Positions 4,341 to 62,300 of a DNA stretch of 64,000 nucleotides are shown piece after piece. Location: positions 5,865 to 69,864 of the forward strand of contig CATWNM010000007.1 in assembly GCA_958352145.1 (NCBI GenBank). Reading direction: 5' to 3'. The notes below the pieces were generated by a model, which saw only the letters and a program-made list of their open reading frames with translations, had not been told where the DNA came from and searched no databases. A program made the translations under genes and the position numbers. This DNA comes from an uncultured Eubacteriales bacterium (GTDB lineage: Bacteria > Bacillota > Clostridia > Oscillospirales > CAG-272). How positions within the stretch are numbered: the stretch's first letter is position 1; each line of letters starts with the position of its first letter.

Positions 4341-7300
4341 TCAATAATAATAGAAACCGCGGTTTTTGACTGTTTCGTACAGCGCGTACTGTCCGGCGGT
4401 GCAGTCTGCGTATTCGTAGACATAATCGTCATCCTGAATCAGCCGGCCGTATTCGTCGTATTTGTAGGTATGAGATTCAGAGGATACAAGATCGCCGTTT
4501 TCGGAATATTGTTTGACGCTGAGCAGGTTGCCGAAGATGTCATAAGCATAGATTGTCAGCGGGTCTTTTGGGCTCGTGTCTGTTCCCTCTACGCGCGCAT
4601 AGCGCGTAAGACGTCCGTGTGCGTCGTATTCTTTTTCATAAACAGCGGTTAATGTCCGCGCGTCCTGTTCGCCGAGCGCGTAGGTTGAGATACGTTCCAG
4701 CCTGCCGTCCGCTTTTGTTTCATACGCGTATTCGTACAGCGTCTCGAAAGGATCGTTTTGCGACGGCGCGTCGTACTGGCGCGCCGGTGTGCCGTCGGGA
4801 TTGTATTCGATCAGCGTGTGCAGCATAGACAAAGGAATATTGCTGATAGATTCGCTGGAACGCATGGTTCCGTCGTCATAGTAGGTATAACGCCTGATGT
4901 GCTTGGATTGCTCATGGATGGCCTCAATCAGCCGTCCCTGCATATCGTACGTATACTCTGTAATGCCGCTTGGAATACCGCCTTGGCTAATCCGCAGGAT
5001 AACCTGATCCGCATCGTTGTACTGATATGAAATACAGACATGTTCGCACTGGCAACTCGGACACCAGCTTTCCGCGCGAATCAGCCGCCCTTTTTCATCG
5101 TATTCATATTCGTACCGGTAATTCATTTCATTTTCGCCGCCGGTGAGGTTATGTATAAGCGGCCGTCCCTGTGAATCATAGGTGTGCGTGCCGGTCATCG
5201 TGGAAATCAACGGTCCATTTTGTTTGTATTCGTTCATGCGGATGCTGTCTCCGCGCGCGTCATAAAGCGCGGAATACACGACTTGATCTCCCTTATAATA
5301 CAATTCTTCAATACCGCAGTCTGCGGTGAAGCGAAATTCGGAGAGAAGACTTGGCGGGGTGGATCCGTTGGATTTATACGTCTTTGCCGGATAGCTGCAG
5401 TTTAAATCGGATGGTTCTACGCCGGGCTGCGCAACCGGTTCGTAGGCGGAGGTAATGCCGAGGTATTCCTCGAGACAAAGCCCGCTTTCCGTGACAGCGG
5501 CAGCAAGCTCTTTTCCAAGATAGCGGATGTGCCACGGCTCGTACATGTATCCGGTTTCGGCTTCTTTATCTTTCGGGTAGCGAATGATAAAGCCGTATTC
5601 GGCACAGTGTTCGGCCAGCCAGATGCCCTCCGGCGAATCGGCGAACCAGTCTTCGCAGACGTTAACGTCGATGGCCAGGCCGCTTTGATGCTCCGAGTGC
5701 CCCGGCCGCGCGGAATAACGGTCGGCGTTTTCCTGGCCGTCGCGCGCCGTATAGTTGCCGTATATCCGGCTTTGCAGTGCATAGCTGCGATAACCTGAAG
5801 CAATTTTCAGCGAAAGCCCCGCTTCGGCGGCCGCTTTTTTCATTTGGTCAAAAGCGGTTTTTGCATCGGGATGAAGCTGACCGGGGTCGTAATTTTCAGG
5901 CAGCGCATAGGTCTTGTTGACGATCAGCACGCCGTTTATGTAGGGAATACCGTTTACATATTGAATGATGGGTTTACCGTCTTCCGGAACAATATATCCG
6001 CTATCCAGCAGCGTCGGGGCGTATGTTTCTGGAATTTCAACGTCCGTCGGGACGGAAGTTTCCGGAGGATTGGTGTTTTCGGTCTGCGTTTTTCCCGGCG
6101 CAGCTTCCGGGTTCGGATCTGAGGGAAAATAATAGAATGCCGAATGCCCGAGGATCATTTCGTACAGCGCGTACTGCTCGGCGGTGCAGTCTGCATATTC
6201 GTAGATGCAGTTGTCTTTTTCCTTAATGCGTCCGTATTCGTCGTATTTGTAGGTATGGGTTTCGGAGGACACAAGCCTGCCGGTTTCGGAATATTTTTTG
6301 ACGCTGAGCAGGTTGCCGCAGGCGTCATACTCGTAAGTTATCAGAGGGTATTTTTGCCCTTTGTCCTCTCCCGCTGTCAGTTCGCAGCGGATCAGGCGGC
6401 CGTCTGCATCGTATTCTTTTTCATATACATTGTTTAACGTGCGCGTGCCGTGCTCGTCGAGCGCATAAGATGAGATGCGTTCCAGCTTGCCGTCCGCATT
6501 CGTTTCATATGCGTACTCATACAGTTTTTCAAAATAATCGCCTGACAACTCTGTTCGGTATTTGCGCGATATCGTGCCGTCGGGATTGTATTCTTTCAAA
6601 GTATGCTCGTGAACTATATAGTTTTGAATATATTCTGCCGATTTTAATGCGCCGTCTTCATAATAGGCATAACGCCAAATCGCTTGGGAATGGTTTCTTG
6701 TTTTTTCAATCAAACGTCCGCTTTCATCATAGGTATAATACACCGTATACGTGCAGAGGTCGCCGACAAAGTCGTCGCTGACTATCTGCGTCAGACGCCC
6801 CGCTTCGTCGTATATATATGCCGTAAGTATATGTTCATACCGTGTGCCCGGATTCCATTGTTCCTCTTGAATCAGCCGTCCGGCTTCGTCGTAGGTATAT
6901 TCATACCGGTCGGTTATGTCATTGATGGAGTCGTACAGGATGCGGGTCAGCGGTTTGCCGTCTTCGTTATACGTGTACGTACCGGTCGTTTCCTCAGTGA
7001 TTTTTCCGCCGCTTTTTTTCGTGCTGCGCACTCGGTCGCCGTATGCGTTGTAGCGCGTGATCGATTGCGTTTGGTTATATGAACTGTAACTGAATGTTTC
7101 TATACCGCCGTCTTCGGTAAAACGATATTCGGACAGCAGCATTTTCGAAGCGGAATTCTTTTGATATGTTCGAGCCTGGATGCTGTAACCGGGATAAGGC
7201 AAGAAATCGGCCGGCTGTATAGCATCGTCCGCGGTAACCGTGGTATCAGCCGTCGTATCGGCGAGAGGCGGTTCGGATGCCGGCGGGGTGTATGGAGGCG

Positions 7301-7376
7301 TGGTTTGAATTTCACAGGCGGAAAGTGCAGAGAAAAATAGAAAAACAGCAAAAATACAGGCAATCGGCTTTTTCAC
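4341..7376 (-). CDS. Lipoprotein with two duplicated YD-repeat modules flanking a VanY/peptidase M15B (D,D-carboxypeptidase-like) domain
   Basis: 1011 aa. Signal peptide plus lipobox (FSALSAC). About ten YxYDxxGRL-type repeats lie in each of two homologous modules (about nt 6128-7160 and 4344-5400). The central domain carries M15B zinc motifs SARPGHSEHQSGLAIDV and EPWHIRYLG. Confidence 0.8.
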   Translation of the reverse strand: MKKPIACIFAVFLFFSALSACEIQTTPPYTPPASEPPLADTTADTTVTADDAIQPADFLPYPGYSIQARTYQKNSASKMLLSEYRFTEDGGIETFSYSSYNQTQSITRYNAYGDRVRSTKKSGGKITEETTGTYTYNEDGKPLTRILYDSINDITDRYEYTYDEAGRLIQEEQWNPGTRYEHILTAYIYDEAGRLTQIVSDDFVGDLCTYTVYYTYDESGRLIEKTRNHSQAIWRYAYYEDGALKSAEYIQNYIVHEHTLKEYNPDGTISRKYRTELSGDYFEKLYEYAYETNADGKLERISSYALDEHGTRTLNNVYEKEYDADGRLIRCELTAGEDKGQKYPLITYEYDACGNLLSVKKYSETGRLVSSETHTYKYDEYGRIKEKDNCIYEYADCTAEQYALYEMILGHSAFYYFPSDPNPEAAPGKTQTENTNPPETSVPTDVEIPETYAPTLLDSGYIVPEDGKPIIQYVNGIPYINGVLIVNKTYALPENYDPGQLHPDAKTAFDQMKKAAAEAGLSLKIASGYRSYALQSRIYGNYTARDGQENADRYSARPGHSEHQSGLAIDVNVCEDWFADSPEGIWLAEHCAEYGFIIRYPKDKEAETGYMYEPWHIRYLGKELAAAVTESGLCLEEYLGITSAYEPVAQPGVEPSDLNCSYPAKTYKSNGSTPPSLLSEFRFTADCGIEELYYKGDQVVYSALYDARGDSIRMNEYKQNGPLISTMTGTHTYDSQGRPLIHNLTGGENEMNYRYEYEYDEKGRLIRAESWCPSCQCEHVCISYQYNDADQVILRISQGGIPSGITEYTYDMQGRLIEAIHEQSKHIRRYTYYDDGTMRSSESISNIPLSMLHTLIEYNPDGTPARQYDAPSQNDPFETLYEYAYETKADGRLERISTYALGEQDARTLTAVYEKEYDAHGRLTRYARVEGTDTSPKDPLTIYAYDIFGNLLSVKQYSENGDLVSSESHTYKYDEYGRLIQDDDYVYEYADCTAGQYALYETVKNRGFYYY

Positions 7377-12164: not shown

Positions 12165-12354
12165 TTAAAAGAAGAACCAATGAGAAGTTTTAAGCAAACA
12201 GCCTTGGAGGTGACGGAAACAAAGAAGATAAGCAAAAAAGGTAGCGGTAGCTCTATAACGGGAATTCCTATTTACAGCTTTTCGCAGATTTTTACCGATT
12301 TTTAGAGATTTTGGCACCATAAGGGCACTATTTAGAAAAATTGAGCGGCACTTT
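12165..12354 (+). repeat. Scar homologous to the 3' tail of the right-hand integrase plus its downstream arm region
   Basis: CTCTATAACGGGA, TTTACAGCTTTTC and GGCACCATAAGGGCAC occur in the same order and orientation as 38170-38255. This is a remnant of an earlier element. Confidence 0.6.
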
Positions 12355-12401
12355 GACAAAGTGAAAACCCTTGAAAACGTAGTGCTTTCAAGGGTTTGTG
12401 G
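12355..12401 (+). repeat. Left copy of the island-flanking direct repeat (att-like core with hairpin)
   Basis: GACAAAGTGAAAACCCTTGAAAACgtagtgcTTTCAAGGGTTTGTgg matches 38358-38404 except in the hairpin loop and the last bases. Confidence 0.75.
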
Positions 12402-12713: not shown

Positions 12714-13610
12714 TTATATTCCATGCTTTGCAAAGCAAAGTCGCCTTTTCTCATATCTTTCTCCATTATCTTTTCTAATAAAAAACGGTAAAGTAACATC
12801 GGTAATCGGCAGTATGCGGTCTTGCGATTTTGTAGGGGCCATTTCGGTAATTGTGGTCGTGCCGGGTGGAACTTTGAACGGTAATTGCTCAACGACAGCA
12901 AAACGCTTGTTTTTCAAATCAATATTGCTCCAACGCAAGCCGAGAACTTCATTACGCCGTAGTCCGTAAAGACCGCTTAAAACAAATATCATTTCTCACT
13001 CATTACCTGAACCCAATGCCATAAGGTGCTGCATTTGCTCGACCGTATAGGGGGCGGGCGCTTTTGCGTCTTTGCCGAACTTCATTAGTATATCTCTTGT
13101 GGGATTTGTTTCAATATAGTGATATTTCCGTGCCGCTTCAAACGCAACGCTTAATATTCGTTGCGTATAACGGCAAGTGCTGGTTGACAATCCTTTGTCG
13201 GAAAGCCGTTTTAACATATTGTCAATCATCGCCGGCGTCAGCTTTTTCAGAGGAACATTCCCGATATATGGAACAATATGGTTTTTGATGTGGCATTTAT
13301 ATCCCGAAAAGGTGCTTGGTCGTAAATTGGCTTTGCCGTGAATCTCAACCCATTCCTCTAAATATTCCTGTACGGTCTGTTTGGCTTCGACAGCCTTAAT
13401 CGGCTCATAACTCGGATTTGTCAGTTTAACACGCATTTCCGCTTCATGGTCTAACGCTTCTTTCTTTGTCAGAAATCCTCGTTTGCCGTATGTTTTATAT
13501 CCATTAGCCGTTTTATAGCGTATAAACACATCATAAACGGTTCCGGCTCTCGCTGTACTGCCGCCGTCAGCAGTGCGCTTATTTTTTACTTGGCGTGTGG
13601 TAACAGACAT
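12714..13610 (-). pseudogene. int: Tyrosine integrase (Tn916-Int-like), disrupted and 3'-truncated
   Basis: The N-terminal arm-binding and SAM-like domains are collinear with the right-hand integrase. There is an in-frame TGA at 12996-12998 where the paralog has TGG (TEWEM vs GNE*EM). Homology ends after ITDVTLPFF, so the HxxR and Tyr catalytic half is missing. Confidence 0.85.
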
Positions 13611-13643: not shown

Positions 13644-13722
13644 ACAATATCGGTTGTACCAATCCCATATGGCTTTGTCTGCAAGTAAACAGCGATTCCC
13701 GTTTTGTATATACTCAAGCTAT
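13644..13722 (-). pseudogene. xis: Excisionase (Xis) 3' remnant
   Basis: The reverse complement reads LEYIQNGNR..AIWDWY, collinear with the intact xis at 36641-36877. The 5' half is absent. Confidence 0.65.
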
Positions 13723-13838
13723 CATACTTTAGTTCCTAAATATCTCCTTCTTTAAATCCCGGGAGCGGAGGAATAAGCCTCAGGCTTTCATTTTGCAGTC
13801 GAAGTACATTACATCTTCACTTTTCTTGGTTGTATTTC

Positions 13839-14708
13839 TTATGCCTTTCGTTGTGCAAGAATCCAATTCAAAATGTTTTCATCATCGAAAAGAATATTAC
13901 CGCCGCCGTGGTAGTTATAAATGCCACGGCTGTTAAAGTATTCGTTATCGGGGATTTCTACAATCAATCGTTCACTAATTTGTTCATCTGTATATCCCTT
14001 TTCACGGTAAGCCGCTTGCAGACTGCTATAAGCGGATCGTGCTTTTTCAGAACCGTAATACTCATCGTTTTCAGCCATAAAGATATATACGGCTACATCA
14101 TTTTGAACTATTGGCTCATAAGCACCGTCCCATTGAGACGCACCGTGCAGATACGCTGCATACAAATCAGGGCGCATTGATACCGCCTGCGACATTGTTT
14201 CGCCTCCTGCCGAATATCCGGCGGCGTAAACTCTTGCCGGATCGACTGCAAAATTATCTATGAAGTATTTCGTCAGTTCAATCGCTTGTCTTGCAGATGT
14301 TTCGTGCCAATCGGTAAATTGAGCAGAAACCACAATCATATCTTCTGCAAGTTCTGTCCATACCTGAAAGCCACTCCATTTCAAATTATTGCCCGAAGAA
14401 TCTTCGCCAAACCACATCATATCGTAACCCGGCATAGTCATCATCAAGGGATAAGTCTTGCTTTCGTCGTAATCCTCCGGCAAGTAATAGCTATAATGAA
14501 TCTCGCCGTCATTACCGTTCAAAATCTGTTCAGAGAAAATACCGGTTTTTTCGGATAAGTTTTCTGTTTCGCTCCGTGTTTTCGATTCGGCAGCAACAGA
14601 TTCAGGCACCTTATTACTTTCGGAATCATCTATCGGCTGATTTACCGAGCAAGCGGTAATCAAAAGTGAAATTATCAATATGGTAGATAGAACCACTTCC
14701 TTTTTCAC
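13839..14708 (-). CDS. Lipoprotein alpha/beta hydrolase (esterase)
   Basis: 289 aa. Signal peptide plus lipobox (LLITAC). Nucleophile elbow GYSAGG. Confidence 0.75.
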   Translation of the reverse strand: MKKEVVLSTILIISLLITACSVNQPIDDSESNKVPESVAAESKTRSETENLSEKTGIFSEQILNGNDGEIHYSYYLPEDYDESKTYPLMMTMPGYDMMWFGEDSSGNNLKWSGFQVWTELAEDMIVVSAQFTDWHETSARQAIELTKYFIDNFAVDPARVYAAGYSAGGETMSQAVSMRPDLYAAYLHGASQWDGAYEPIVQNDVAVYIFMAENDEYYGSEKARSAYSSLQAAYREKGYTDEQISERLIVEIPDNEYFNSRGIYNYHGGGNILFDDENILNWILAQRKA

Positions 14709-14737
14709 TTATTCCACCTCGCTTTGAAAGACTGTTG

Positions 14738-15577
14738 TTAATGCAGTTTTGTCAGCATTTCCACAACCGACGGATCGTAGTGGGAGAAAAACAGGCTTTC
14801 CTTTTCGTCCAATGCTCGGATTGCGTTCATATCGTTTTCGTCAAGTGCAAAATCAAAGACATTGAGATTTTCCGCCATACGCTCCTTATGGGTGGATTTC
14901 GGGATTACCACAACATCGCTTTGCAGGAGGAAACGGAGAGCAACCTGTGCGGCACTTTTGCCGTGCTTTTTGCCAATCTCATTCAGTACGGGATTGGAAA
15001 AGAAATCCTTTCTGCCCTCGGCGAACGGGCCCCAAGATTCGTGCTGTACGCCGTATTTTTCCATATATTCGTGGGCTGATTTCTGCTGTTGGAAAATATG
15101 CGTTTCCACCTGATTGATCGCAGGTTTTACCTCGACAAAGCTGCACAAATCCACCAATCTGTCTGGATAAAAATTGGAAACACCGATTGCCCGAATCCAG
15201 CCTTCTTTATAGGCTTCTTCCATTGCCCGGTAAGTACCGTAGTAATCATTAAAGGGCTGATGAATCAAAACAAGGTCGATATACTCGGTTTGCAGTTTGC
15301 GTAAGGATTCTTTCAGCGATTCCTTTGCTTTTTCATATCCTCCGTTTGTAATCCAAACCTTTGTGGTAATAAAGAGTTCGTTACGGGAAACGCCGCACTT
15401 GCTGATAGCATTTCCGACCGCATCTTCGTTGCCGTATGCTTGTGCCGTATCAATCGAGCGATAGCCGACGCTGATTGCGTCCAGTACGCAGCGTTCACAT
15501 TCTTCGTTTGACACCTGATATACGCCGTAGCCCAGCTTTGGCATTTTGATTCCGTTATTCAAAGTTACATACTCCAT
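14738..15577 (-). CDS. Aldo/keto reductase (2,5-diketo-D-gluconate reductase-like)
   Basis: 279 aa. MEYVTLNNGIKMPKLGYGVYQV, IDTAQAYGNE and LVLIHQP are AKR hallmarks. Confidence 0.9.
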   Translation of the reverse strand: MEYVTLNNGIKMPKLGYGVYQVSNEECERCVLDAISVGYRSIDTAQAYGNEDAVGNAISKCGVSRNELFITTKVWITNGGYEKAKESLKESLRKLQTEYIDLVLIHQPFNDYYGTYRAMEEAYKEGWIRAIGVSNFYPDRLVDLCSFVEVKPAINQVETHIFQQQKSAHEYMEKYGVQHESWGPFAEGRKDFFSNPVLNEIGKKHGKSAAQVALRFLLQSDVVVIPKSTHKERMAENLNVFDFALDENDMNAIRALDEKESLFFSHYDPSVVEMLTKLH

Positions 15578-15590
15578 AATTGATTTCTCC

Positions 15591-16346
15591 TTATTTTACA
15601 TTTTTATAATCTTCGTTTCTTACAGGCTCACACCATTCGGTATGTGTGTTTTCTCCCGGTACTTCCACCGCAAGATGAGAGAACCAACTATCCGGTGCTG
15701 CACCGTGCCAATGCTTCACGCCTGCCGGAATATTGATAACATCCCCTGCTGTCATACAAATCGGTTTCTTGCCCCATTCTTGATAGAAGCCCCTGCCGGC
15801 AACACAGACCAAAATCTGACCGCCGCCCTGATCGGCGTGGTGGATATGCCAGTTATTTCGGCACCCCGGTTCAAAGGTCACATTGAAAATACCCACCTGT
15901 TCTTGGGACACAGGGGCAAGATAACTTTGCCCCGCAAAATACTGTGCAAAGGCATCGTTCGGCTGCCCGATCGGGAACAGCATAGATTTTTCATAAGCGG
16001 TTTTTTTGTCCGCTTCGTCTGTTTCATCTTTCCAAATATCTTTTGCTAAGCAGAAAGCCGCCCACGCTTTGGGCCAGCCTGCATAAAAGGCTGCGTGCGT
16101 AATAGTTTCGGCGATTTCGCTTCTTGTGATTCCATTCGCTTTTGCCGATTCCAGATGATGAACGAAAGAGGTATCTGTAAGCCCTTGAGAAAGAAGCGCC
16201 ACTACGGTTATCAAAGAGCGTTCTTTCAGAGAGAGTTTGTCCTCTCTGCTCCATACCTGACCGAAAAGCACGTCGTCATTGAGTTCTGCAAATTTAGGCG
16301 CAAATTCTCCGAGGGCGGTTCTTCCCGCCGTTTGCTTTACTGACAT
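15591..16346 (-). CDS. Carboxymuconolactone decarboxylase-family / cupin fusion protein
   Basis: 251 aa. The N-terminal CMD-like half (LFGQVWSREDKLSLKERSLITV) is fused to a C-terminal cupin (WHIHHADQGGGQILVCVAGRG...GVKHWHGA). Confidence 0.75.
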   Translation of the reverse strand: MSVKQTAGRTALGEFAPKFAELNDDVLFGQVWSREDKLSLKERSLITVVALLSQGLTDTSFVHHLESAKANGITRSEIAETITHAAFYAGWPKAWAAFCLAKDIWKDETDEADKKTAYEKSMLFPIGQPNDAFAQYFAGQSYLAPVSQEQVGIFNVTFEPGCRNNWHIHHADQGGGQILVCVAGRGFYQEWGKKPICMTAGDVINIPAGVKHWHGAAPDSWFSHLAVEVPGENTHTEWCEPVRNEDYKNVK

Positions 16347-16380
16347 ACTGTTGCCCTCCTAACATATTGATATATCGTTA

Positions 16381-16830
16381 TCAGAGATTTTCTGATAATT
16401 TATGGGCCTCGGAACGGTTGGTTGCCATACCTGCGTATTTCATTCCGTAAAGTCCTGCAAAGCGTTTCATCGTATATTCTCCGGCGTCCAACATCCATTT
16501 TTCCGGTGCTGCGCCTTGAAAGAGGAAATAGAGCGTTCTGCCAGACAATGAACCGTTTTCTACCAACCCGTAGAAACGATCCAGCATATTTCGTACCGAG
16601 CCGCAGATGTTGTGCCAGTACAGCGGAGAGCCAATAACAATTACCTCTGCCTGTTCCATTTTCGCAATAACCTGACCGAACTGATCGTCCTCGAAATGCT
16701 GCCCGTAACTTCCGATTCTGTAATCTGTCAAATTCTGCGTTTCATATTCTTTTCCTTTCAGAAGCTCTTTTGCAAGGGCGGCGGTATTTCCGCTCTGATT
16801 CGGGCTTCCGTTGATAAATAAGATGTTCAT
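16381..16830 (-). CDS. Flavodoxin-fold NAD(P)H-dependent FMN reductase-like protein
   Basis: 149 aa. MNILFINGSPNQSGNT and IGSPLYWHN are typical of the FMN_red/flavodoxin_2 fold. Confidence 0.7.
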   Translation of the reverse strand: MNILFINGSPNQSGNTAALAKELLKGKEYETQNLTDYRIGSYGQHFEDDQFGQVIAKMEQAEVIVIGSPLYWHNICGSVRNMLDRFYGLVENGSLSGRTLYFLFQGAAPEKWMLDAGEYTMKRFAGLYGMKYAGMATNRSEAHKLSENL

Positions 16831-16851
16831 TTGTTATTCCTCCTATAAAAT

Positions 16852-17870
<1,019 letters not shown>

Positions 17871-18407
17871 CTATACATTTTTGCCCATTTCATAGGCTTC
17901 AGCCATAGCCGGGGTACCCAGTATCGTGCCTTTTTCATAGACGCCTGTGCCGTAAATAACGCCCATTTCTTTTGCACCGTTTACGCAGTCAGCATAGCCG
18001 CGGAAACAGGCAAGTGTGGTTTCCATAGACGATTTATCTTCATCGGCGGCAGTCATAATATAGTAAAACTCTTTGTTTTTCACCTCTAGCCAGCGGGCAA
18101 CCGTCCTGTCGATAACCGCTTTTAACTGTGCGTCAATGGAATAGAAATAAACAGGGCTTGCAAGCACAAGTACATCGGCGTCGATCATTGCCTGCAAAAT
18201 TTCTGCCATATCATCTTTGTAAGCGCACTCGCCGCCGTGTTCACGGCAAAAATAGCAAGCGCGGCAAGGCGTTACTTTTTTGTTTGCAACATTGATTTTG
18301 GTTACATTGTTGCCGGCTTCCTTTGCTCCACGCATAAATTCATCACAGAGTAAATCGGAGTTGCCGCCGCCCCGGGGGCTGCCGGATAAGATAAGTACAT
18401 TTTTCAT
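17871..18407 (-). CDS. Iron-sulfur flavoprotein (Isf)-like flavodoxin-fold protein
   Basis: 178 aa. MKNVLILSGSPRGGGNS plus the compact Cys motif C-x2-C-x2-C-x6-C (PCRACYFCREHGGEC). Confidence 0.7.
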   Translation of the reverse strand: MKNVLILSGSPRGGGNSDLLCDEFMRGAKEAGNNVTKINVANKKVTPCRACYFCREHGGECAYKDDMAEILQAMIDADVLVLASPVYFYSIDAQLKAVIDRTVARWLEVKNKEFYYIMTAADEDKSSMETTLACFRGYADCVNGAKEMGVIYGTGVYEKGTILGTPAMAEAYEMGKNV

Positions 18408-18427
18408 TGTTCAAATTCTCCTTGTTT

Positions 18428-19111
18428 TTAATTTTTATAACCAAGTTCGTCAAGCCACTCGTCAACGGCGCTTTCTGCCTCGGCTACATTGTTGCCCGCA
18501 TAGGTAAAGTAGTTGTCGGCTAATACGGTTGAATCCGGACAAAGTTCCTCCAGAGTAGAAATGCTGCCCGCACCCGACGAGCTGCCGTTATGCGTAAAAA
18601 ACGGAATGATTGTTTTTCCCGACAGGTCATATTCTTCGAGAAAAGACCAAACAGGCATTGGCAGATCGTACCACCAAATCGGGAAGCCAATAAAGATAAC
18701 ATCGTATTCAGCCATAGCCTCTTTATCTATGTGAGAGGAAAGGGGTGGGCGAGTACCGCTGTTAAGTTCGTCTTGCGCCCGATCAAATACATCGTCGCTT
18801 GTATAATTGACTTCGGGCGTAATTCTAAATAATTCACCGCCTGTTTTATCAGAAATCCAGTTCGCAACCTGCTGTGTATTGCCCGACCAAGAGAAATAGG
18901 CGACCAAGATATTAGAATCACCTGCCACGCTTTCTTCGGAGGCGCTGTCAGCGGGATCCTCTGTGTTGTTGTCTGTGACAGCGTTATCATTATTCATAGT
19001 GGCACCGATGTTGTCCGCAGCGTTATTGCTTTGCTGGTTGCAGGCGGACAGAGAGAGAACGCAGCCAACACATAAAACAAGCGAAATCATTGATAATAAA
19101 ATTTTCTTCAT
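18428..19111 (-). CDS. Lipoprotein-anchored flavodoxin-domain protein
   Basis: 227 aa. Signal peptide plus lipobox (LSLSAC), a low-complexity linker, then a flavodoxin domain (ILVAYFSWSGNTQQVA...IGFPIWWYD). Its ATG overlaps the upstream stop (ATGA). Confidence 0.75.
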   Translation of the reverse strand: MKKILLSMISLVLCVGCVLSLSACNQQSNNAADNIGATMNNDNAVTDNNTEDPADSASEESVAGDSNILVAYFSWSGNTQQVANWISDKTGGELFRITPEVNYTSDDVFDRAQDELNSGTRPPLSSHIDKEAMAEYDVIFIGFPIWWYDLPMPVWSFLEEYDLSGKTIIPFFTHNGSSSGAGSISTLEELCPDSTVLADNYFTYAGNNVAEAESAVDEWLDELGYKN

Positions 19112-19794
19112 AGTGCCTCCTTAAATTTTTCCTTTTGATTTTTGTCCAGCCTACTTTTCTTTTGCAACAGTTTCTTACCGTAATAGGCGAAACCTGCAAA
19201 GGTAGAGGACATAGCGATAGTTTCAAAAAAATATATTATTGCTGATTTATCGGTATCAAAAAACTTAAACTCGGTAAGGTAGAACAGTTCCTCGTAAAAG
19301 GCTCTGCCGAAAAATACATAAATGCCGTATGCCGCCAGTAAAACGACAATGATTTGACCTGCCCGCAGAAGTGACCTCCTCTGTTTGAGCTTATTCGCCA
19401 AAGGCGTGAAATGCAATCCCAAATGCAGGTTCATCAGTACAAACGTCCATGCGGTTGCGATAAGGTGAAGCATTCTGCCGAATTTTGCCCCGCCTAAATT
19501 CAGAAAGGCAAAAACTTTTCCCGAAACCAGCACTGAACTTACCATACAGCACAACATAGTGATAAGCAGCGCAATATTGATAATCGTCGATACCGTCCTT
19601 GTCGGTGCGTATTTCCCCTTGAAAAGCGTTTTATACCAACGGAAATTCAGGATATTGTGAGCGATAAACAACACAAATAATGCTATACCGATCCATTCGT
19701 GCAATCCACCCCATAGGTGTTCTTGCATAAGGGCAACAAAGATTAGGTACATAGCAATGTCAATAGTAATTTTAACAACCCGCTTGTATTGCAT
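19108..19794 (-). CDS. His-rich polytopic membrane protein (DUF4405-like, possible b-type cytochrome fold)
   Basis: 228 aa with about six hydrophobic segments. Histidines sit in or next to TM segments (EHLWGGLHEW, IAHNIL, MLHLIA, LHLGLH). The family assignment is from memory and needs an HMM check. Confidence 0.5.
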   Translation of the reverse strand: MQYKRVVKITIDIAMYLIFVALMQEHLWGGLHEWIGIALFVLFIAHNILNFRWYKTLFKGKYAPTRTVSTIINIALLITMLCCMVSSVLVSGKVFAFLNLGGAKFGRMLHLIATAWTFVLMNLHLGLHFTPLANKLKQRRSLLRAGQIIVVLLAAYGIYVFFGRAFYEELFYLTEFKFFDTDKSAIIYFFETIAMSSTFAGFAYYGKKLLQKKSRLDKNQKEKFKEAL

Positions 19795-19798
19795 TTTG

Positions 19799-20845
19799 TC
19801 ACCTCCATATTAGGCGCAGCCCATTGTAAAAGTACAGCATAGCGTAGTAGCCGGAATGATCGCCGTCAGATTCAAGGTAATATAAATTTCCCTCTGCTTC
19901 ATTATCGGCAAAACGGAAAATACCGCTGTCGCTTGCCGCCATAGTGTCAATTCCACGCTTAAAACCTGAATAAGCGAAATCGTTTGTCCCCGAAGCGGCA
20001 AAAATGAAGAAATCGTTCCAATCGTGCCCCGAACTTTGGACAATACTCTCGTAGGTTTCTACGCTTGAAGCAGGGCCTCCGCTTGACGGCATAAAATAGC
20101 GGAAGTAATCAAGGCAATATTCAAAAGTACGCCAAGTTGCCATAGAACCCATTGAAAATCCGCAGAAAGCCCGATAATCACGAGAAGCGGCAATCGCTTC
20201 GGGAGTGATGTCTTCGGCATAAGTGCTGTATTTCCCCTCCACTGCCGGAATAAGGTCGTTTATTAACTCATTGTGATAATTGTCGGTCAACCGGAGAGCA
20301 AGACCGTAGTCGCCGCTGTCCTCCGGGCTTGTATTGTTGTAGGTAGGGCAAACAACAATCATCGGCTGGATTTCGCCGTTTGCAATGCCGTGATCGAGAA
20401 TGTGTTTCATTCTTAGCGGCTCATCAGGGCTGCCAAGATAGGCATATTCGTTACTCCAACCGCCGTGCATAAGATAGAACACGGGATATTTCTTACTTTC
20501 GTCATAGCCATACGGCAGATAAACAACAGCGTGCTTCCTAAGTTTTTGGCTTTTTTCCTCGTAGGAAAAGGATTCGTAAGAATCGTAGTAAAGGTCTTGC
20601 AAAGTGCCTTGCTGCTGGGCCTCGCTCAAATAGCTGTCGGGAATTGGGGTGAGCGAAACAGGAAAACGGTTTACGGTTTCGTCTGTATCAGACGGCGTAC
20701 TATTGTATTCAGCCCCCAAACTGCCGTTTTCTGCCCCTATATCCTCGCCGCCTATCGAGGACGAAGCACACGCCGAAAGAATGAGCGATAAGGCGATGAA
20801 CATAGTCAAAATTACAATACATTTTTTCATAGCATTATTTTTCAA
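19799..20845 (-). CDS. Lipoprotein esterase (putative esterase / feruloyl- or enterochelin-esterase-like alpha/beta hydrolase)
   Basis: 348 aa. Signal peptide plus lipobox (LILSAC). YPVFYLMHGG and the nucleophile elbow GFSMGS. Confidence 0.75.
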   Translation of the reverse strand: MKNNAMKKCIVILTMFIALSLILSACASSSIGGEDIGAENGSLGAEYNSTPSDTDETVNRFPVSLTPIPDSYLSEAQQQGTLQDLYYDSYESFSYEEKSQKLRKHAVVYLPYGYDESKKYPVFYLMHGGWSNEYAYLGSPDEPLRMKHILDHGIANGEIQPMIVVCPTYNNTSPEDSGDYGLALRLTDNYHNELINDLIPAVEGKYSTYAEDITPEAIAASRDYRAFCGFSMGSMATWRTFEYCLDYFRYFMPSSGGPASSVETYESIVQSSGHDWNDFFIFAASGTNDFAYSGFKRGIDTMAASDSGIFRFADNEAEGNLYYLESDGDHSGYYAMLYFYNGLRLIWR

Positions 20846-22037
20846 GGCTTTCTACCCAAGCGATTACATCGCTTTCGTTGGTGCCGGAACGGAAACGCTC
20901 GCCCGTCTGCCAATCGCCTGTGCCTGCCATTTCTGCAAGCAGTTTGCCGCTTTCGCCAAGTCCTGAACTTGAAGATGTTGCAAAGGGAATAACGGTCTTT
21001 CCCGTAAAATCGTTTGCTTTAATGAATCCGTCAACAGGCCAAGCGGCAATGCCCCACCAAATCGGATAGCCGATGAAAACAGTGTCGTATTCGCCCCAAT
21101 TATCGACTGTGCTTTTTACAAGCGGTACATCACGCTCATTGGGATTATCGTGTTCACGCACAACACGGCTGTTATCGTCTGTCCAGTTAAGATCGGCGTC
21201 GCTGTACGGATTGGCGGGTTCAAGTTTAAATAGATCGCCGTTTGTTGCGGCTGCAATCGTTTTTGCCACATTCTCTGTGTTGCCTGTTGCGGAGTAATAG
21301 ACAACTAATGTTTTTCCTGCCTCATCGGTGGAATTTGGCGCTTCGACAACAGAAGATTCCGGCTGTGCCGCAGTTTGTTCAAAGCCAAGAGATTTCACCC
21401 AATCAATAATTTCCTGCTCTGCGTCTTGAATATCGTTACGGGAAATGGATTTACCCTCTAATACCTTGGCGTTTGGCTCCAGTTCTTTGATTGTGGAGAT
21501 TGTACCCGAAAAACCGCTGCCGCCGTGTGTGTTAAAGGGAATAATGGTCTTGCCGGAAAAATCGTATTCGTCAAAGAAAGAATAAAGGATCATCGGCATA
21601 TCGCCCCACCAATTCGGATAACCGACAAAGATATTTTCATAGGTGTCAAAATTTTCGATGGTATCTTTGATTTTCGGTCTTGCATTATTGTTCTGTTCTT
21701 CTTTTGCAAGGTCAACCAGCGTATCGTGGTCGGTAGGATAGGGCGTTTCCGGCTCAATGCGGAAAATGTCTGCATCAACGGTTTCTTCAATAACATAAGC
21801 CATATACTGCGTATTACCGAGCGTTTCACCGCCTATTACAACAGTACTGTCATCAACATTATCAGGCATGGAAAAATACACGACAAGATTTTTTTCGTTT
21901 GTATTATGCGGCGTGAATGCGCTCCCATTATTTTGCGACGGTGTATTCGTATCGCCCTGCTGATTACTGCAAGCGGCAAAAGCGAATATAAGAATAAGGC
22001 TCATAAAAACAGCGATTATTTTTTTCATAACGAACAT
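20835..22037 (-). CDS. Lipoprotein with two tandem flavodoxin domains
   Basis: 400 aa. Lipobox FAFAAC. Domain 1 has NLVVYFSMPDN...VGYPNWWGD and domain 2 has TLVVYYSATGNTENVA...IGYPIWWG. The stop overlaps the next gene by 11 nt. Confidence 0.75.
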   Translation of the reverse strand: MFVMKKIIAVFMSLILIFAFAACSNQQGDTNTPSQNNGSAFTPHNTNEKNLVVYFSMPDNVDDSTVVIGGETLGNTQYMAYVIEETVDADIFRIEPETPYPTDHDTLVDLAKEEQNNNARPKIKDTIENFDTYENIFVGYPNWWGDMPMILYSFFDEYDFSGKTIIPFNTHGGSGFSGTISTIKELEPNAKVLEGKSISRNDIQDAEQEIIDWVKSLGFEQTAAQPESSVVEAPNSTDEAGKTLVVYYSATGNTENVAKTIAAATNGDLFKLEPANPYSDADLNWTDDNSRVVREHDNPNERDVPLVKSTVDNWGEYDTVFIGYPIWWGIAAWPVDGFIKANDFTGKTVIPFATSSSSGLGESGKLLAEMAGTGDWQTGERFRSGTNESDVIAWVESLEK

Positions 22038-22054
22038 TCCTTTCTATGATGTTT

Positions 22055-23224
22055 TTAATAACATTCCTTGAAAATTTCCAAGATTTCTTCGTGCGACATT
22101 TGTTTGTAACTGCCGGGGACGATAGCTACGGTATCAGCGATTTCCTTTAAGTTTGTTTGCTCGGTTACACCGAGTTCCCGCAAGGTCGTGGGCAAACCGA
22201 TTTCTTTGATAAAATCTGCCAACGCTTCAACGCCTACAAGGGCGGTTTCTTCCTCTGTTTTGCCGTCTGCCGAAACGCCCCAAACCTCGGTTGCGAATCG
22301 TTTGAATTTCGGCAAGCCGTATTTATAAATATGGCGGTAATAAACAGGGTGCAGAACCGCAAGTCCCTCGCCGTGGTTGCAATTGGTGTATGCGCCAAGC
22401 TGGTGTTCCATTTGGTGACATTCAAAATCTGTGCGTTTGCCGAGTTTGATAATTCGGTTTTCTGCCATTGTAGCCGCCCACATCAGATTGCTTCGTGCGG
22501 TATAATCCTTCGGATTCTGAATAGCAGTACGGAGGTTGCGGATTACGCTTCGCATAAGCGCCTCGGAAATATCGTCCGATACATTGTCCTCGTTTGGCTC
22601 GCTGAAATAAATCTCCATAATGTGCGAAAGAATATCAAAACTGCCGGACGCCATTTGTTTTTTTGGCACGCTGTACGTATAGGTCGGGTCGAGCAGGGCA
22701 AATTGGGGGTTGCATTTTGGATAATCTCTGCCTGTTTTGATTTTCAAGTCCTCGTTGGTAATAACTGCGCCGCCATTGCACTCGCTGCCTGTGCCTGCCA
22801 CGGTGACAATTACGCCGAGGGGTAACGGCTCGAAATCAAAGATACCCGGTCTCGTCCAAAAATCCGCCCATACATCGCCTTCATAGCAGGCGGCAATAGA
22901 AATCGCTTTACAGCAGTCCATAACAGAGCCGCCGCCGATTCCTAAAAGCAGGCTAACTCCGTTTTCCCTTGCGAGTTTTGCACCCTCCAACAACCTTGCG
23001 TAGGTGGGGTTTGCCATAATTCCGCTAAACTCCACCACGGTTTTACCTGCGGCTTTCAAGATTCCCATTACCTCGTCATAGATACCGTTTTTCTTGATAG
23101 AGCCGCCGCCATAACAAAGCATAACCGTATCGCCGTAGGCTTTTGTCAGGCATGACAAATATTCCTTTACGCAGCCTTTGCCAAAATAAACCTTTGTAGA
23201 GTTTTCAAAAATAAAGTTGTTCAT
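22055..23224 (-). CDS. Iron-containing alcohol dehydrogenase (butanol dehydrogenase/YqhD-like)
   Basis: 389 aa. GGGSVMDCCKAI signature and conserved His cluster (HQMEHQLG...HGEGLA). Confidence 0.9.
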   Translation of the reverse strand: MNNFIFENSTKVYFGKGCVKEYLSCLTKAYGDTVMLCYGGGSIKKNGIYDEVMGILKAAGKTVVEFSGIMANPTYARLLEGAKLARENGVSLLLGIGGGSVMDCCKAISIAACYEGDVWADFWTRPGIFDFEPLPLGVIVTVAGTGSECNGGAVITNEDLKIKTGRDYPKCNPQFALLDPTYTYSVPKKQMASGSFDILSHIMEIYFSEPNEDNVSDDISEALMRSVIRNLRTAIQNPKDYTARSNLMWAATMAENRIIKLGKRTDFECHQMEHQLGAYTNCNHGEGLAVLHPVYYRHIYKYGLPKFKRFATEVWGVSADGKTEEETALVGVEALADFIKEIGLPTTLRELGVTEQTNLKEIADTVAIVPGSYKQMSHEEILEIFKECY

Positions 23225-23272
23225 TGTATCAATCCTTTCTTTGATTATTTGTGTTGATAATTTCTTCGAGCG

Positions 23273-24292
23273 TTACATTTGCGTTTCCCAAAAGTCCATA
23301 GCGTCATTTATCCACCCCACGGCAATCGTTCCCGTGCCGAGACCGAAGCCGTGTCTCAGGCCTTTGTAATGGTGAAATTCGGTCGGGATTCCAAGTGCGT
23401 TCAAATGGTCAAGCCGAGCCTCCATTGTACGCCAGTTTGCAATACCGTCGTTTTCGCCCACACAAGCATAGGTCGGCGGATCGTTCTCGCTATATTCGTT
23501 GTAACCTGTGTACTGCATAATCACTGCCCCGGCCTGCGGCAAATCTTTTTCTCCGAACGCTGCCGTGCCATAAGAACCGAGCCACGCTGCCATTCTTCCT
23601 CCTGCCGAACCGCCCCAGAGGGAATAACAATCCGTGTTTACCTCTAATTCATCAGCATTTTCAAAAATAAAGCTGATTGCTCTTGCCAAGTCCTCGCAGG
23701 CGGTCTGTGCGCCGGGGCGATAAATCAAAGCAAATGCATTGTAGCCCATTTTTGATAATTCCAAAGCATGGGGAAAACTATCGTGCATTGCGCCAACATA
23801 AGCAAATCCGCCGCCTACGTTGCATACCGCAAACCGTTCACCGGGATTTCCCTTGAAGAAAAACAAGCCTGTATCTTCCTTTGTGGGATCAGCCGCCTTT
23901 TCTTCATCGGTATAAATGTCATAGAAAATCACATGGCCGTTTTCAGCGTGGTTTTTCATATAGTTCGTAATCTCAACGGTCTTATCAGGGTCAATATTGT
24001 TGTACTAAATAAGTCCGAGTTCCCCCAATGTATCGCCGCTGTAATATCCGCTGTTTACAGGGAATATTAGTCTGCCGTAATCCCCAAAGACGGGGTTGTT
24101 CATCACATCGGATATTTTGGTGTTTACCGTATATCGTTCAGTATTGTTCTGATTCGCTTGCACAGATGTCTCTACTCCTTTGGAATCCGTGTCTGTATCG
24201 GTGTTATTCATTTTTATACAACACCCTGCAAGGAAAACGGCTATACAAATTAAAATTGCGAGGAAAGCGTTCTTTCTCAAAGCCGTCACCAA
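23273..24292 (-). pseudogene. Lipoprotein alpha/beta hydrolase interrupted by an in-frame TAG
   Basis: ORFs 24005-24292 (signal peptide plus lipobox FLAGC) and 23273-23959 share a frame. They are separated only by a TAG at 24005-24007 (GELGLI*YNNIDPDK). Catalytic elbow WGGSAGG. Confidence 0.75.
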
Positions 24293-24374
24293 CCTTTTTG
24301 TTTACAGTATAAACAAAACGAGACCTCCGCAGAAGTCTCGTTTTGTTTATCAGTTTATACCCAAAGGTTATATC

Positions 24375-25319
24375 TTATCTAATTTCCTTTATACAACGAT
24401 TTCCCTGCCCGCAGGGGTCTTTCACCGCCGCCTGCGCTGCGCTAAGAAAGCGCTTAACTAATTCTGTCGGTTGCGGTGAGTGCAATATGCCGTAGGGAAT
24501 ACAATGCTCCCATTCCACAGGAATAACTTTTAACAACGGATGTACATTTGCCCAGCCGGGAATAGCCATCAGGATATCGTTTCCATTTTCGCAGCGATTA
24601 AATATGTTTACATCATAAAAATCAAAATCTATTACATTGATTTGCGGATGGTTTTTCCAAATATCATCGCGCAGTCCGTCAACATAACGGCTCCAGCCAC
24701 GGTGCATTAAAAGCAAATTTTCACCATATAAATCCTCTATCTTTAATTTATCCTTTGAGGCAAGTCGATGATGAAAAGATACTGCACAGCAAAGCGGCTC
24801 ACAGGACAGCCTCAATCCGTCGCAATGACGAAGATGTAGCATTGTTTCATCAAATATACCGCCGATTACATCAATGTTTGTACCGAGGTTAGCTAAAATC
24901 TCCCGTGCATTTTCAGGTGTATTTTCAAACGGAACAATCTGAAATTTCATATCAGGGCAATGCTCATGCATTTTTGGCCATAACTGCATAAGCAGTTGCG
25001 CCGGCGTGGTAGCCGATGTACCGATTCGGATAATATTCGTATCCTCCTGCATTGCGTTTTTCGCCCGTGTGACGGAATCTTTACAGTATTGAATGATGTA
25101 TTTTGAATCCTGATACAGAGAGCGACCGGCTTTTGTCAAAAGTAAGCCTCTGTGAGTACGCTCAAAGAGTTTCACCTCTAACGAATCTTCCAACAAATTG
25201 ATTTGTTTTATGACAGCAGTAGGCGTAATGTAAGATTCTTCTGCGGCCTTATTAAAACTGCCGGCGTCTGCTACTCTTAAAAATGTTTCAAGTTGAGGGT
25301 TATACATCCATTTCACCAC
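24375..25319 (-). CDS. LysR family transcriptional regulator
   Basis: 314 aa. N-terminal LysR HTH (LETFLRVADAGSFNKAAEESYITPTAVIKQINLLE) plus a substrate-binding domain. First large gene of the minus-strand cluster. Confidence 0.9.
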   Translation of the reverse strand: MVKWMYNPQLETFLRVADAGSFNKAAEESYITPTAVIKQINLLEDSLEVKLFERTHRGLLLTKAGRSLYQDSKYIIQYCKDSVTRAKNAMQEDTNIIRIGTSATTPAQLLMQLWPKMHEHCPDMKFQIVPFENTPENAREILANLGTNIDVIGGIFDETMLHLRHCDGLRLSCEPLCCAVSFHHRLASKDKLKIEDLYGENLLLMHRGWSRYVDGLRDDIWKNHPQINVIDFDFYDVNIFNRCENGNDILMAIPGWANVHPLLKVIPVEWEHCIPYGILHSPQPTELVKRFLSAAQAAVKDPCGQGNRCIKEIR

Positions 25320-25509
25320 CTTTACTCCAACGCTTTTTTCGTAAATCTGTCGGTTTTTCCGCCGTTTTGGGAATCATCCAAGAACGCCCGAATTTTTGTG
25401 TTCCGTCTATTCTATTTTCTTCACATAATTTTTGAATACGCCGTTCAGAGATTTCCCATTTCTGTGCCGCCTCTTTGACTGATATGTAATCCATTTCCAT
25501 CCTCCCCAA
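25300..25509 (-). CDS. Small helix-turn-helix DNA-binding protein (excisionase/MerR-like HTH)
   Basis: 69 aa. DYISVKEAAQKWEISERRIQKLCEENRI is a typical HTH_17-like motif. Overlaps the LysR start by 20 nt. Confidence 0.65.
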   Translation of the reverse strand: MGRMEMDYISVKEAAQKWEISERRIQKLCEENRIDGTQKFGRSWMIPKTAEKPTDLRKKRWSKGGEMDV

Positions 25510-26109
25510 AGTACGCTTAACCGAACAATAACATAACTATATTTTATTCGTATATGTGTATAGTGTCAAGAGAAATATTTGAACTGGTTTTAGGGACATT
25601 TAAATTGGTGAGCGTAGACTCTCCGAATTAGGTAGCAAACAAATTTTGGGGAGATTTTGTTTTACAGTGATAAGGAAGTATTTACAACAACTTATCATCG
25701 ACGCTGACAAACAGGATTGCAAACAGAAACAGAGAGTTAATCACTTCCAAAAATGGTCGGCTCTCTGTTTTTCTATCTCCGCATTGTTACGCAGTAGAAC
25801 CCCATTTTTAAGGGAAAAGGTATAAATCCCTTACCCTTGATATTTTCGTGTCTGTAAGCCGTTTAAATCAAGGTTGTTTTGCCCTCTACTGCGTAACATT
25901 ACTATGGTAATTCATGTAGCTGTTTACACAAAACAAAACCTATGTGTACTTCCGGCTTTCGGTATTGGATTACCCTACATTGGATTTTCCAACGTTGGAT
26001 AAACCTATGTTGGAAAATCCAACGCAATTAAATAAAGATATACAAAGTAAAGATTAAATAATTACTGATTCAATCAATTACCCATTCCTTTCCGTCCCCT
26101 CAATTCTAC

Positions 26110-36640: not shown

Positions 36641-36877
36641 ATGGCAAAAAAAGAAACTACAAGCCAAGCCGCCCCGATGTTACCTATGCTAAAAACCGTA
36701 GAGCAAATGAGCAAGGTTAGCGGCATTGGTGAAAACAAGCTCCGTGAGCTTATGGATAGCGGCGAGCTTGAATATATCCAAAACGGAAACCGCCGATTGA
36801 TAGCCGATTCTGCAATATGGGATTGGTACCATAGAGCAAAGACGGCGGCAAAATCCCCGGCTACACAAGGGGGTTAA
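36641..36877 (+). CDS. xis: Excisionase (Tn916 Xis-like DNA-binding protein)
   Basis: 78 aa. LKTVEQMSKVSGIGENKLRELMDSGELEYIQNGNRRLI. RBS AAAGGGGG. Lies immediately upstream of int. Confidence 0.8.
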   Translation: MAKKETTSQAAPMLPMLKTVEQMSKVSGIGENKLRELMDSGELEYIQNGNRRLIADSAIWDWYHRAKTAAKSPATQGG

Positions 36878-38183: not shown

Positions 38184-38238
38184 CGGGAACATCTCTTTAC
38201 AGCTTTTCACTACTTTTTATAGGTTTTTAAGACATTCG

Positions 38239-38352: not shown

Positions 38353-38357
38353 ACCAA

Positions 38358-62266: not shown

Positions 62267-62300
62267 CGCGCCAGAAAGTATTTATGTGTGAGGAATATTT

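Follow-up and report, generated by a model that had tools for sequence, protein, structure and literature searches.

Four intact genes on the minus strand of a 64-kb stretch of DNA from an uncultured Eubacteriales bacterium (contig CATWNM010000007.1, positions 5,865 to 69,864; hereafter the window) encode a membrane protein of the DUF4405 family, two flavodoxin lipoproteins and an esterase lipoprotein. We consider it probable that the DUF4405 protein is a di-heme b cytochrome that passes electrons outward to the surface flavodoxins, and that these carry non-covalent flavin mononucleotide (FMN). This reading draws on four conserved histidines in the membrane protein, on flavodoxin domains that keep the FMN site and lack the flavinylation motif, and on the recurrence of the two kinds of gene side by side, or fused, across genomes. 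The four core genes and the flavoprotein gene that follows them are listed here in window coordinates, with expectation values (E).

20835..22037, minus strand: tandem Flavodoxin_4 lipoprotein (PF12682 in two stretches, E 1.7e-68; lipobox FAAC)
19799..20845, minus strand: CE1 feruloyl-esterase-like lipoprotein (PF00756 Esterase; lipobox LSAC)
19108..19794, minus strand: DUF4405 six-helix membrane protein, 228 amino acids, predicted di-heme b cytochrome (PF14358, 43.1 bits)
18428..19111, minus strand: single-domain Flavodoxin_4 lipoprotein, 227 amino acids (PF12682, E 9e-30; lipobox LSAC)
17871..18407, minus strand: cytosolic FMN_red-family flavoprotein, 178 amino acids (PF03358, E 1e-21; no signal peptide)

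DUF4405 genes were found adjoining apbE in Firmicutes and Proteobacteria, in clusters that often encode flavinylated Flavodoxin_4 proteins, by Huang, Méheust, Barquera & Light (mSystems 2024, PMC11334425). The protein was modelled there as six transmembrane (TM) helices with four central, highly conserved histidines. A purified Oscillospiraceae DUF4405 protein gave heme b spectra; heme was shown only for this member, MBD5117352.1. Our search of the literature on PF12682, PF14358 and extracytosolic flavodoxins found no other relevant paper.

The DUF4405 protein and its histidines

The match of the window protein to DUF4405 (PF14358) covers residues 71-129 and lies well above the gathering cut-off (43.1 bits vs 26.7, E 6.2e-11). 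The same family was matched by 54 of its 55 homologues.

A HMMER scan of 1.84 billion cluster representatives yielded 5148 DUF4405 relatives. Conservation was read from 133 full-length representatives with 26-55% identity to the query, and from a second set of 94 close full-length homologues. H32, H46, H110 and H124 were invariant in 133 of 133 representatives and 98-99% conserved in the close homologues. An earlier reading of the window from its letters alone (the sequence-only reading) had listed six histidines in or at the edge of hydrophobic segments and likened them to the bis-His heme ligands of b-type cytochromes, to be checked by conservation and by placement in helices. Five of the six stood, namely the four invariant residues and H128, which is kept in 125 of the 133 representatives (94-95%). 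The sixth, H26, is not conserved (22 of 133). The heme idea was right in kind, and with the purification of a family member with heme b it is already published (PMC11334425).

The AlphaFold2 model, built on 55 homologues, reached a predicted local distance difference test score of 87.4 and a predicted template modelling score of 0.85. DSSP assigned helices to residues 2-22, 31-49, 64-90, 103-127, 140-163 and 185-227. Hydropathy recovered five of the six, with the last (185-227) below threshold. In the model H32 and H46 lie inside helix 2 (31-49), and H110 and H124 inside helix 4 (103-127), where the sequence-only reading would have them. On both helices the two histidines are 14 residues apart, about 21 Å along the axis, which would put both members of a pair on the same helical face. 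A 14-residue spacing is typical of di-heme b cytochromes. The N-terminus, the loops 50-66 and 128-139 and the C-tail are rich in lysine and arginine, suggesting that both termini are cytoplasmic, with H32/H110 near the outer face and H46/H124 near the inner face. According to the model, the four histidines sit at two membrane depths; the His-His geometry of the two predicted heme sites is something we infer rather than take from coordinates.

Weak matches to Ni_hydr_CYTB (PF01292) in 23 of the 55 homologues (best E 3.7e-5) and to Ferric_reduct (PF01794) in 20 of the 55 hint at a wider cytochrome clan. The window protein itself scored 11.8 bits against PF01292 (E 0.21), below the gathering score of 30.1.

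Exported flavodoxins and their linkage to DUF4405

The two PF12682 stretches and the lipobox FAAC bear out the description of the first core gene, in the sequence-only reading, as encoding one lipoprotein with two flavodoxin domains. The NCBIfam models PRK06934 and PRK07116 matched residues 45-218 and 241-399 of this protein, both above cut-off. Domain 2 is a canonical short-loop Flavodoxin_4 domain that matches 4ICI (E 5.5e-37). The 227-residue flavodoxin is also of the short-loop type and matches 3KLB (E 6e-24). Both are close to 4ICI, 4J8P and 3KLB within this range of E values, and 3KLB is a Flavodoxin_4 protein with non-covalent FMN (PMC11334425). The FMN-site segments GNT, PxWW and PFxTxG[GS]S are kept in all three flavodoxin domains.

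A Gram-positive lipobox pattern of the G+LPPv2 type was matched by the tandem flavodoxin, the 227-residue flavodoxin, the esterase (from either of two candidate starts, TTG 20845 or ATG 20830) and the fragment of a BD-FAE-type hydrolase encoded upstream. None of these four has a twin-arginine (RR) motif.

The flavinylated serine of Flavodoxin_4 sits in an insertion between β1 and α1 (PMC11334425). Domain 1 of the tandem protein has a 17-residue insertion at this place (MPDNVDDSTVVIGGETL), while domain 2 and the 227-residue flavodoxin have none. The motif [ST]G[AS][ST] was found nowhere in the three exported proteins of the core, and none of the three flavodoxin domains has [S/T]GA[S/T]. With no flavinylation motif, the FMN of all three domains is presumably held non-covalently.

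All insertion-bearing flavodoxin domains of the related loci L001-L090 were sorted into four classes.

Class A: VMETDGVDTV[A/S]GASRV…, with the canonical ApbE motif
Class B: …DVDAV[A/S/T]SPSV…
Class C: MPDNVD[D/N]STVVI[D/G]GETL, including domain 1 of the window
Class D: RADENY type, cytosolic-looking

When aligned with the DTV[AS]GAS of class A, domain 1 of the window is four residues short, including the GA, and keeps the aligned serine (VDDS vs AGAS). In a comparison of core columns the 16 domains of class C were monophyletic and sister to class A, with a mean identity of 54% to class A and about 40% to the other classes. None of the 16 has the xxGA part of the motif.

Homologues of the 227-residue flavodoxin carry SGAS where the window protein has SGAG. 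We rejected these as flavinylation sites, as their place is the Gly/Ser-rich FMN loop that follows β4 and not the β1-α1 insertion.

About 50 open reading frames (ORFs) of the window, including every predicted gene of at least 150 amino acids, were scanned against Pfam, and no apbE (PF02424) was found among them. ApbE occurred at 3 of the 80 DUF4405 loci described below (Pfam-confirmed in L083). The absence from the window is weak evidence, because even among loci with class A domains only one of 7-8 has ApbE within 7 kb, so that ApbE often acts in trans.

These results bear on the alternative that survives best: an ordinary flavinylation-associated system, in which ApbE from elsewhere in the genome attaches FMN covalently, for example at the serine of the domain 1 insertion. 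It would account for an insertion at the flavinylation position with its serine kept and for the sister relation of the domain 1 clade to the canonical-motif clade, and with ApbE acting in trans its absence from the window would carry little weight. We nevertheless judge it improbable. The motif is missing from all three exported proteins and its xxGA part from the whole domain 1 clade, domain 2 and the 227-residue flavodoxin lack the insertion and resemble 3KLB, and 77 of the 80 loci are, like the window, without ApbE.

The gene junctions were read from the sequence. The esterase TGA is separated by 4 nt from the DUF4405 ATG, which has GGAGGTG upstream, and the DUF4405 TGA overlaps the ATG of the single flavodoxin as ATGA at 19111-19108, with AAGGAGG upstream. 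The sequence-only reading had both junctions right. It also had the tandem flavodoxin and esterase genes overlap by 11 nt, which holds for an esterase start at TTG 20845 but not for ATG 20830, 4 nt past the tandem-flavodoxin TAA. The latter yields what looks like a conventional lipoprotein signal peptide (MKKCIVILTMFIALSLILSAC) and is our preferred start. Public gene calls take the third candidate start (ATG 20803), an ATG 31 nt downstream. The tandem flavodoxin more likely starts at 22028 (MKK..., 397 amino acids), matching public calls. Short gaps and ATGA overlaps are ordinary for operons, and the packing is unremarkable in itself. The above-chance feature is the recurrent adjacency of DUF4405 and flavodoxin genes across genomes.

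When one genome per species was scanned, 525 species genomes had DUF4405 relatives, and the neighbourhoods of the best 80 of these 525 were counted. These 80 loci are nearly all from gut isolates or metagenome-assembled genomes of the class Clostridia (Lachnospiraceae, Oscillospirales, Christensenellales and similar), with single Anaeroplasmataceae, Erysipelotrichaceae, Bacilli and Muribaculaceae records. A Flavodoxin_4-like gene was present within 7 kb of DUF4405 at 73 of the 80 loci, and directly adjacent on the same strand at 58 (46 upstream, 14 downstream). A cytosolic flavin reductase gene was found at 44 loci (FMN_red type 39, Flavin_Reduct 17), an aldo/keto reductase at 38, a carboxymuconolactone decarboxylase (CMD)/cupin at 30, a regulator of the LysR, MerR or TetR type at 46, any α/β-hydrolase at 20, and a CE1 esterase at 7. 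The stop-start overlap of DUF4405 and flavodoxin recurs in homologues with 79%, 52% and 48% identity.

The two partners are also joined in natural fusions. In six proteins (cluster representatives) a seventh TM helix joins DUF4405 to Flavodoxin_4. Another (P0230) has an FGE-sulfatase domain between the added TM helix and Flavodoxin_4, and a further form joins DUF4405 through a TM helix to an FMN_bind domain with DAVSGAT. An extra TM helix is expected if the flavin domain is outside while the DUF4405 C-terminus is inside, and in the fusions the flavin domain and the cytoplasmic C-tail come to lie on opposite sides of the membrane. One fused ORF (P0232) combines DUF4405, Cyclophil_like2, CE1 esterase and a hydrolase, and a flavodoxin is fused to a BD-FAE hydrolase in L019.

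Adjacency and fusions, both read at the level of sequence, support a functional pair of DUF4405 cytochrome and surface flavodoxin. They lend weaker support to a link with secreted hydrolases. The sequence-only reading had taken the tight coupling to imply a complex of all four core products made in stoichiometric amounts. This is supported only in part: adjacency and fusions argue for a physical or functional pair of DUF4405 and flavodoxin, and the CE1 esterase is found with DUF4405 at only 7 of 80 loci.

Other proteins recur beside DUF4405. FGE-sulfatase (SUMF1-like)-Flavodoxin_4 fusion lipoproteins were seen in L032 (8532-10040), L038, L045, L074, L079, L080, L088 and L007. L021, L023, L024 and L028 encode exported proteins of 520-660 amino acids with one or two Flavodoxin_4 domains and a repeat region that, by eye, resembles leucine-rich repeats of the BspA type. 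Further recurrent neighbours are Cyclophil_like2 proteins, either secreted or anchored (23 loci), DUF362 lipoproteins (14) and an ArsP_1-type permease (8), with examples from this set at L050 8111-8653, L064 7711-8772 and L090 7623-8171.

Proposed electron flow and its alternatives

In the mechanism that we propose, the DUF4405 protein would be a di-heme b cytochrome that crosses the membrane with six TM helices and has its N- and C-terminus on the cytoplasmic side. The ligands of one heme, near the outer face, would be H32 on helix 2 and H110 on helix 4; those of a second heme near the inner face, about 21 Å deeper, would be H46 and H124. Electrons would enter from the cytoplasm, with the 178-residue FMN_red flavoprotein as the likeliest donor and a quinol as another possible one. 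They would pass from the inner heme (H46/H124) to the outer heme (H32/H110), and from there to FMN on the three Flavodoxin_4 domains of the two lipoproteins, which are tethered to the membrane on its outside. The last step would be the reduction of an extracellular acceptor by the flavodoxins. We speculate that the cassette serves to process or detoxify plant phenolic esters, quinones or other electrophiles or oxidants at the cell surface, because feruloyl-esterase-like lipoproteins, aldo/keto reductases, an iron-containing alcohol dehydrogenase (Fe-ADH), an AhpD-like/cupin protein and a LysR regulator are co-encoded.

Electrons might also run the other way, with the flavodoxins oxidising an extracellular reductant and passing electrons inward, or the DUF4405 protein might be a quinol dehydrogenase. 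Quinones are frequent redox partners of di-heme b proteins such as NarI, FdnI and CybB. A quinone site could be formed by H128 and the loop at the cytoplasmic face (N50, W53, G60, Y62, R66), all of them highly conserved, and a cytosolic flavin reductase is encoded nearby at only 44 of the 80 loci. Many Clostridia have no quinones, however, and the co-encoded cytosolic enzymes are reductases. Published DUF4405 relatives were interpreted as outward electron conduits (PMC11334425). On balance, reversed or quinol-fed flow seems distinctly improbable.

Very improbable is the absence of any dedicated complex, with the genes being mere neighbours in a LysR-controlled stress or detoxification mix and DUF4405 binding metal through its histidines or serving as an anchor or sensor: the neighbourhoods are indeed heterogeneous (aldo/keto reductase, CMD/cupin, Fe-ADH, hydrolases, Cyclophil_like2, DUF362), the esterase family differs between loci and is often absent, and no solved heme protein is detectably related, but a family member binds heme b experimentally (PMC11334425), four invariant histidines with 14/14 spacing on a pair of helices make up the classic di-heme pattern, several lineages have DUF4405 fused to flavodoxin or FMN_bind domains, and a flavodoxin gene is adjacent at 58 of 80 loci.

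Several points count against outward electron transfer from a DUF4405 cytochrome to non-covalent flavodoxins, which we still prefer. We infer heme binding by the window protein from its sequence, and likewise the electron donor, the acceptor, the direction of flow and the formation of a complex. The comparison with known cytochromes to which the sequence-only reading had pointed gave no significant relation beyond the weak PF01292 and PF01794 matches. Foldseek of the AlphaFold2 model against the Protein Data Bank (PDB) returned nothing significant (best E 0.9; cytochrome b561 4O6Y at E 6), and 7ABW was not among its matches. A profile of the 55 homologues found only a chance match among PDB sequences (E 0.53), and hhalign gave 0.6% probability against E. 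coli CybB, the sequence of which was checked against 5OC0. Many gut Clostridia do not synthesise heme, and the 64-kb window holds no heme genes. Sec-exported flavodoxins would need to take up FMN outside the cell, and no flavin exporter or transporter was found in the cassette or the window. The CE1 esterase is an occasional partner (7 of 80 loci) and may have no more than an incidental link to the redox module. Among the accessory genes, those of the BD-FAE hydrolase and one aldo/keto reductase are pseudogenes here.

Accessory genes, island context and known systems

The core belongs to a co-directional run of minus-strand genes from 25509 to 13839. The tandem flavodoxin, esterase, DUF4405, single flavodoxin and 178-residue FMN_red genes come in this order between the Fe-ADH gene and the first aldo/keto reductase gene of the following list, which is in the order of the run.

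25300..25509, minus strand: small HTH_17/excisionase-family DNA-binding protein (TIGR01764, E 1e-5; HTH_17 in public calls)
24375..25319, minus strand: LysR-type regulator heading the cassette (PF00126 and PF03466)
23273..24292, minus strand: gene of a BD-FAE-type α/β-hydrolase lipoprotein, with in-frame stop W96* (PF20434; lipobox LAGC)
22055..23224, minus strand: Fe-ADH, upstream in the cassette (PF00465 and PF25137)
16855..17846, minus strand: aldo/keto reductase pseudogene (PF00248; tblastn with the 335-residue L011 protein)
16381..16830, minus strand: second cytosolic FMN_red-family flavoprotein (PF03358, E 1.3e-16)
15591..16346, minus strand: CMD (AhpD-like)/cupin fusion (PF02627 and PF07883)
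14738..15577, minus strand: aldo/keto reductase (PF00248, E 1.3e-52)
13839..14708, minus strand: α/β-hydrolase (S9/PHB-depolymerase-like) with lipoprotein-like N-terminus (PF00326; weak NCBIfam esterase_phb)

The strongest promoter-like site of a promoter scan lies at 25569-25541, upstream of the HTH_17 gene. It was the one good site; promoter and terminator counts in the scan were no higher than in shuffled sequence.

Some 280 residues of the esterase aligned with the CE1 feruloyl esterase domain of Clostridium thermocellum XynY (1GKK/6FJ4; E 3e-50). Its GFSMGS aligned with GFSMGG, and a DH near the C-terminus with TH. By this alignment it is a clear homologue of CE1 feruloyl esterases with the catalytic Ser and His kept. 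The cassette encodes two further hydrolases with lipoprotein-type N-termini, one of the BD-FAE (feruloyl/acetyl-xylan esterase) type. The intact L011 protein, used as query in tblastn, revealed a single in-frame stop, W96*, in the BD-FAE gene. This gene is intact in the L098 contig (335 amino acids), which encodes an identical DUF4405 protein, and split in L095. For the aldo/keto reductase at 16855-17846, the tblastn match of the 335-residue L011 protein was split over three frames, with two frameshifts and one stop, and the same split was called in all four metagenome contigs examined. The position of the Fe-ADH gene is conserved in L001-L004, L011-L013 and L095.

The 178-residue FMN_red gene begins 20 nt downstream of the core. 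Its protein has a CX2CX2CX6C motif, which we take to resemble the compact Cys motif of iron-sulfur flavoproteins. The N-terminal 100 residues, including this motif, match the structure of a gut flavone reductase (7D38, PDB name Cd1; E 4e-11). We rejected the protein as a flavone reductase itself: the match is confined to these 100 residues and the C-terminal substrate-binding tail is absent.

A 12-kb block of the window (13717-25671) is 90% identical in DNA to the L011 contig, from an uncultured Clostridiales genome; the α/β-hydrolase at 13839..14708 is the last gene of the shared block. An identical DUF4405 protein occurs in 116 blocks of the public assembly collection, with the same neighbours in the contigs examined. 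In L096 (3740-8488), three tandem tyrosine recombinase genes and a DUF6262 gene replace the half of the cassette from LysR to the tandem flavodoxin, while the esterase, DUF4405 and downstream genes are kept.

Two imperfect copies of a direct repeat of about 150 nt (77-87% identity), at 12248-12399 and 38173-38402, bracket about 26 kb of DNA with lower GC content (0.38-0.47 vs 0.50-0.60), and the right copy abuts a tRNA-Ser(CGA) gene at 38403-38491. Fragments of tyrosine integrases face outwards at the ends (12996-13610, minus strand; 37458-38183, plus strand); one comprises just the arm-binding/SAM-like N-terminal part, and the other just the catalytic part. Immediately inside these fragments is an inverted repeat of 65 nt (13656-13720 and 36765-36829). 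The region of about 26 kb that carries the flavodoxin/DUF4405 cassette looks like an integrated island or tandem islands. A palindromic region of 58 nt (25965-26022; overlapping arms of 35 nt, 83% complementary) lies between the putative promoter of the cassette and small genes resembling sigma-70 region 4.

Other genes of the window include one for a 1011-residue protein with RHS repeats and a VanY D-Ala-D-Ala carboxypeptidase domain (4341-7376, minus strand), three consecutive paralogues of M42 glutamyl-aminopeptidase (45370-48474, minus strand), and a sulfatase gene followed by that of a radical SAM/SPASM protein (60704-63413, plus strand), the usual pairing of a sulfatase and its anaerobic maturase. 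Two long ORFs overlap on opposite strands (52277-54010, minus, and 52361-54211, plus; 577 and 616 amino acids); no Pfam family matched the product of the minus-strand ORF.

On the current view, gut Firmicutes rely for extracytosolic electron transfer on covalently flavinylated proteins, which keep the flavin from being lost outside the cell. In this cassette and its many relatives, flavodoxins that lack the attachment motif are exported and encoded beside the same cytochrome. If they work, covalent attachment is not obligatory. Such exported flavodoxins are common and would amount to a large pool of redox proteins at the cell surface. The feruloyl esterases, the aldo/keto reductases and the distant relation of an FMN_red protein to flavone reductase point to the processing of dietary polyphenols as a possible function. 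A broader proposal is that gut Clostridia have a widespread, ApbE-independent surface redox module, in which DUF4405 links cytosolic FMN_red to exported flavodoxins with non-covalent FMN, the motif-less clade has either lost covalent flavinylation or reflects a state that preceded it, and the module works here with feruloyl-esterase lipoproteins on plant phenolics or quinones. We offer this as tentative, and as a whole it is unlikely to hold.

The system can be compared with several known ones. MsrQ, a heme b membrane protein of the FRD family, works with cytosolic Fre and periplasmic MsrP. The cassette resembles it in its logic, with a flavoprotein in the cytosol, a cytochrome b in the membrane and a redox partner outside the cytoplasm, and PF01794 was weakly matched by 20 of 55 homologues. 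It differs in Pfam family and in having a flavodoxin as acceptor and no molybdoenzyme partner, and the sequence relation to MsrQ is not significant. As in cytochrome b561 and Ni-hydrogenase cytochrome b (PF01292; CybB, 5OC0), four histidines lie on TM helices and two hemes are predicted, but DUF4405 has six helices and CybB four.

The flavin-based extracellular electron transfer of Listeria involves Ndh2, EetA/B, PplA and FmnB. The FMN_bind domains of PplA are flavinylated by an ApbE-type enzyme, and the pathway is fed by quinone without a cytochrome. Both systems belong to Gram-positive bacteria, and in both an FMN-carrying surface lipoprotein would receive electrons from the membrane, as we propose for the window. 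The window encodes Flavodoxin_4 domains and a predicted cytochrome. Its esterase shares the nucleophile motif GFSMG and the His region with the CE1 domain of Xyn10B/XynY (1GKK, 6FJ4). Unlike that protein, it is a stand-alone lipoprotein in a redox cassette, with no xylanase, dockerin or carbohydrate-binding modules.

The closest counterpart is the system of Huang et al. (2024; PMC11334425). The window lacks apbE and a flavin transporter, which occur there, and its three flavodoxin domains lack the [S/T]GA[S/T] motif. Its tandem flavodoxin joins a motif-less domain of the insertion type to a short-loop domain, a CE1 esterase lipoprotein gene stands between the tandem flavodoxin and the cytochrome, and the cassette adds aldo/keto reductase, Fe-ADH, CMD-cupin and FMN_red genes. 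The two systems share their Pfam families (PF14358 and PF12682), a membrane protein with six TM helices and four conserved histidines, extracytosolic flavodoxins with a flavodoxin gene adjoining the cytochrome gene (in the window two lipoprotein genes flank it), and hosts among the Firmicutes/Clostridia. The cassette is a variant of the published system, with the same cytochrome and flavodoxin families; it differs in the missing motif, the absence of a local ApbE, the tandem flavodoxin and the feruloyl-esterase-like partner.

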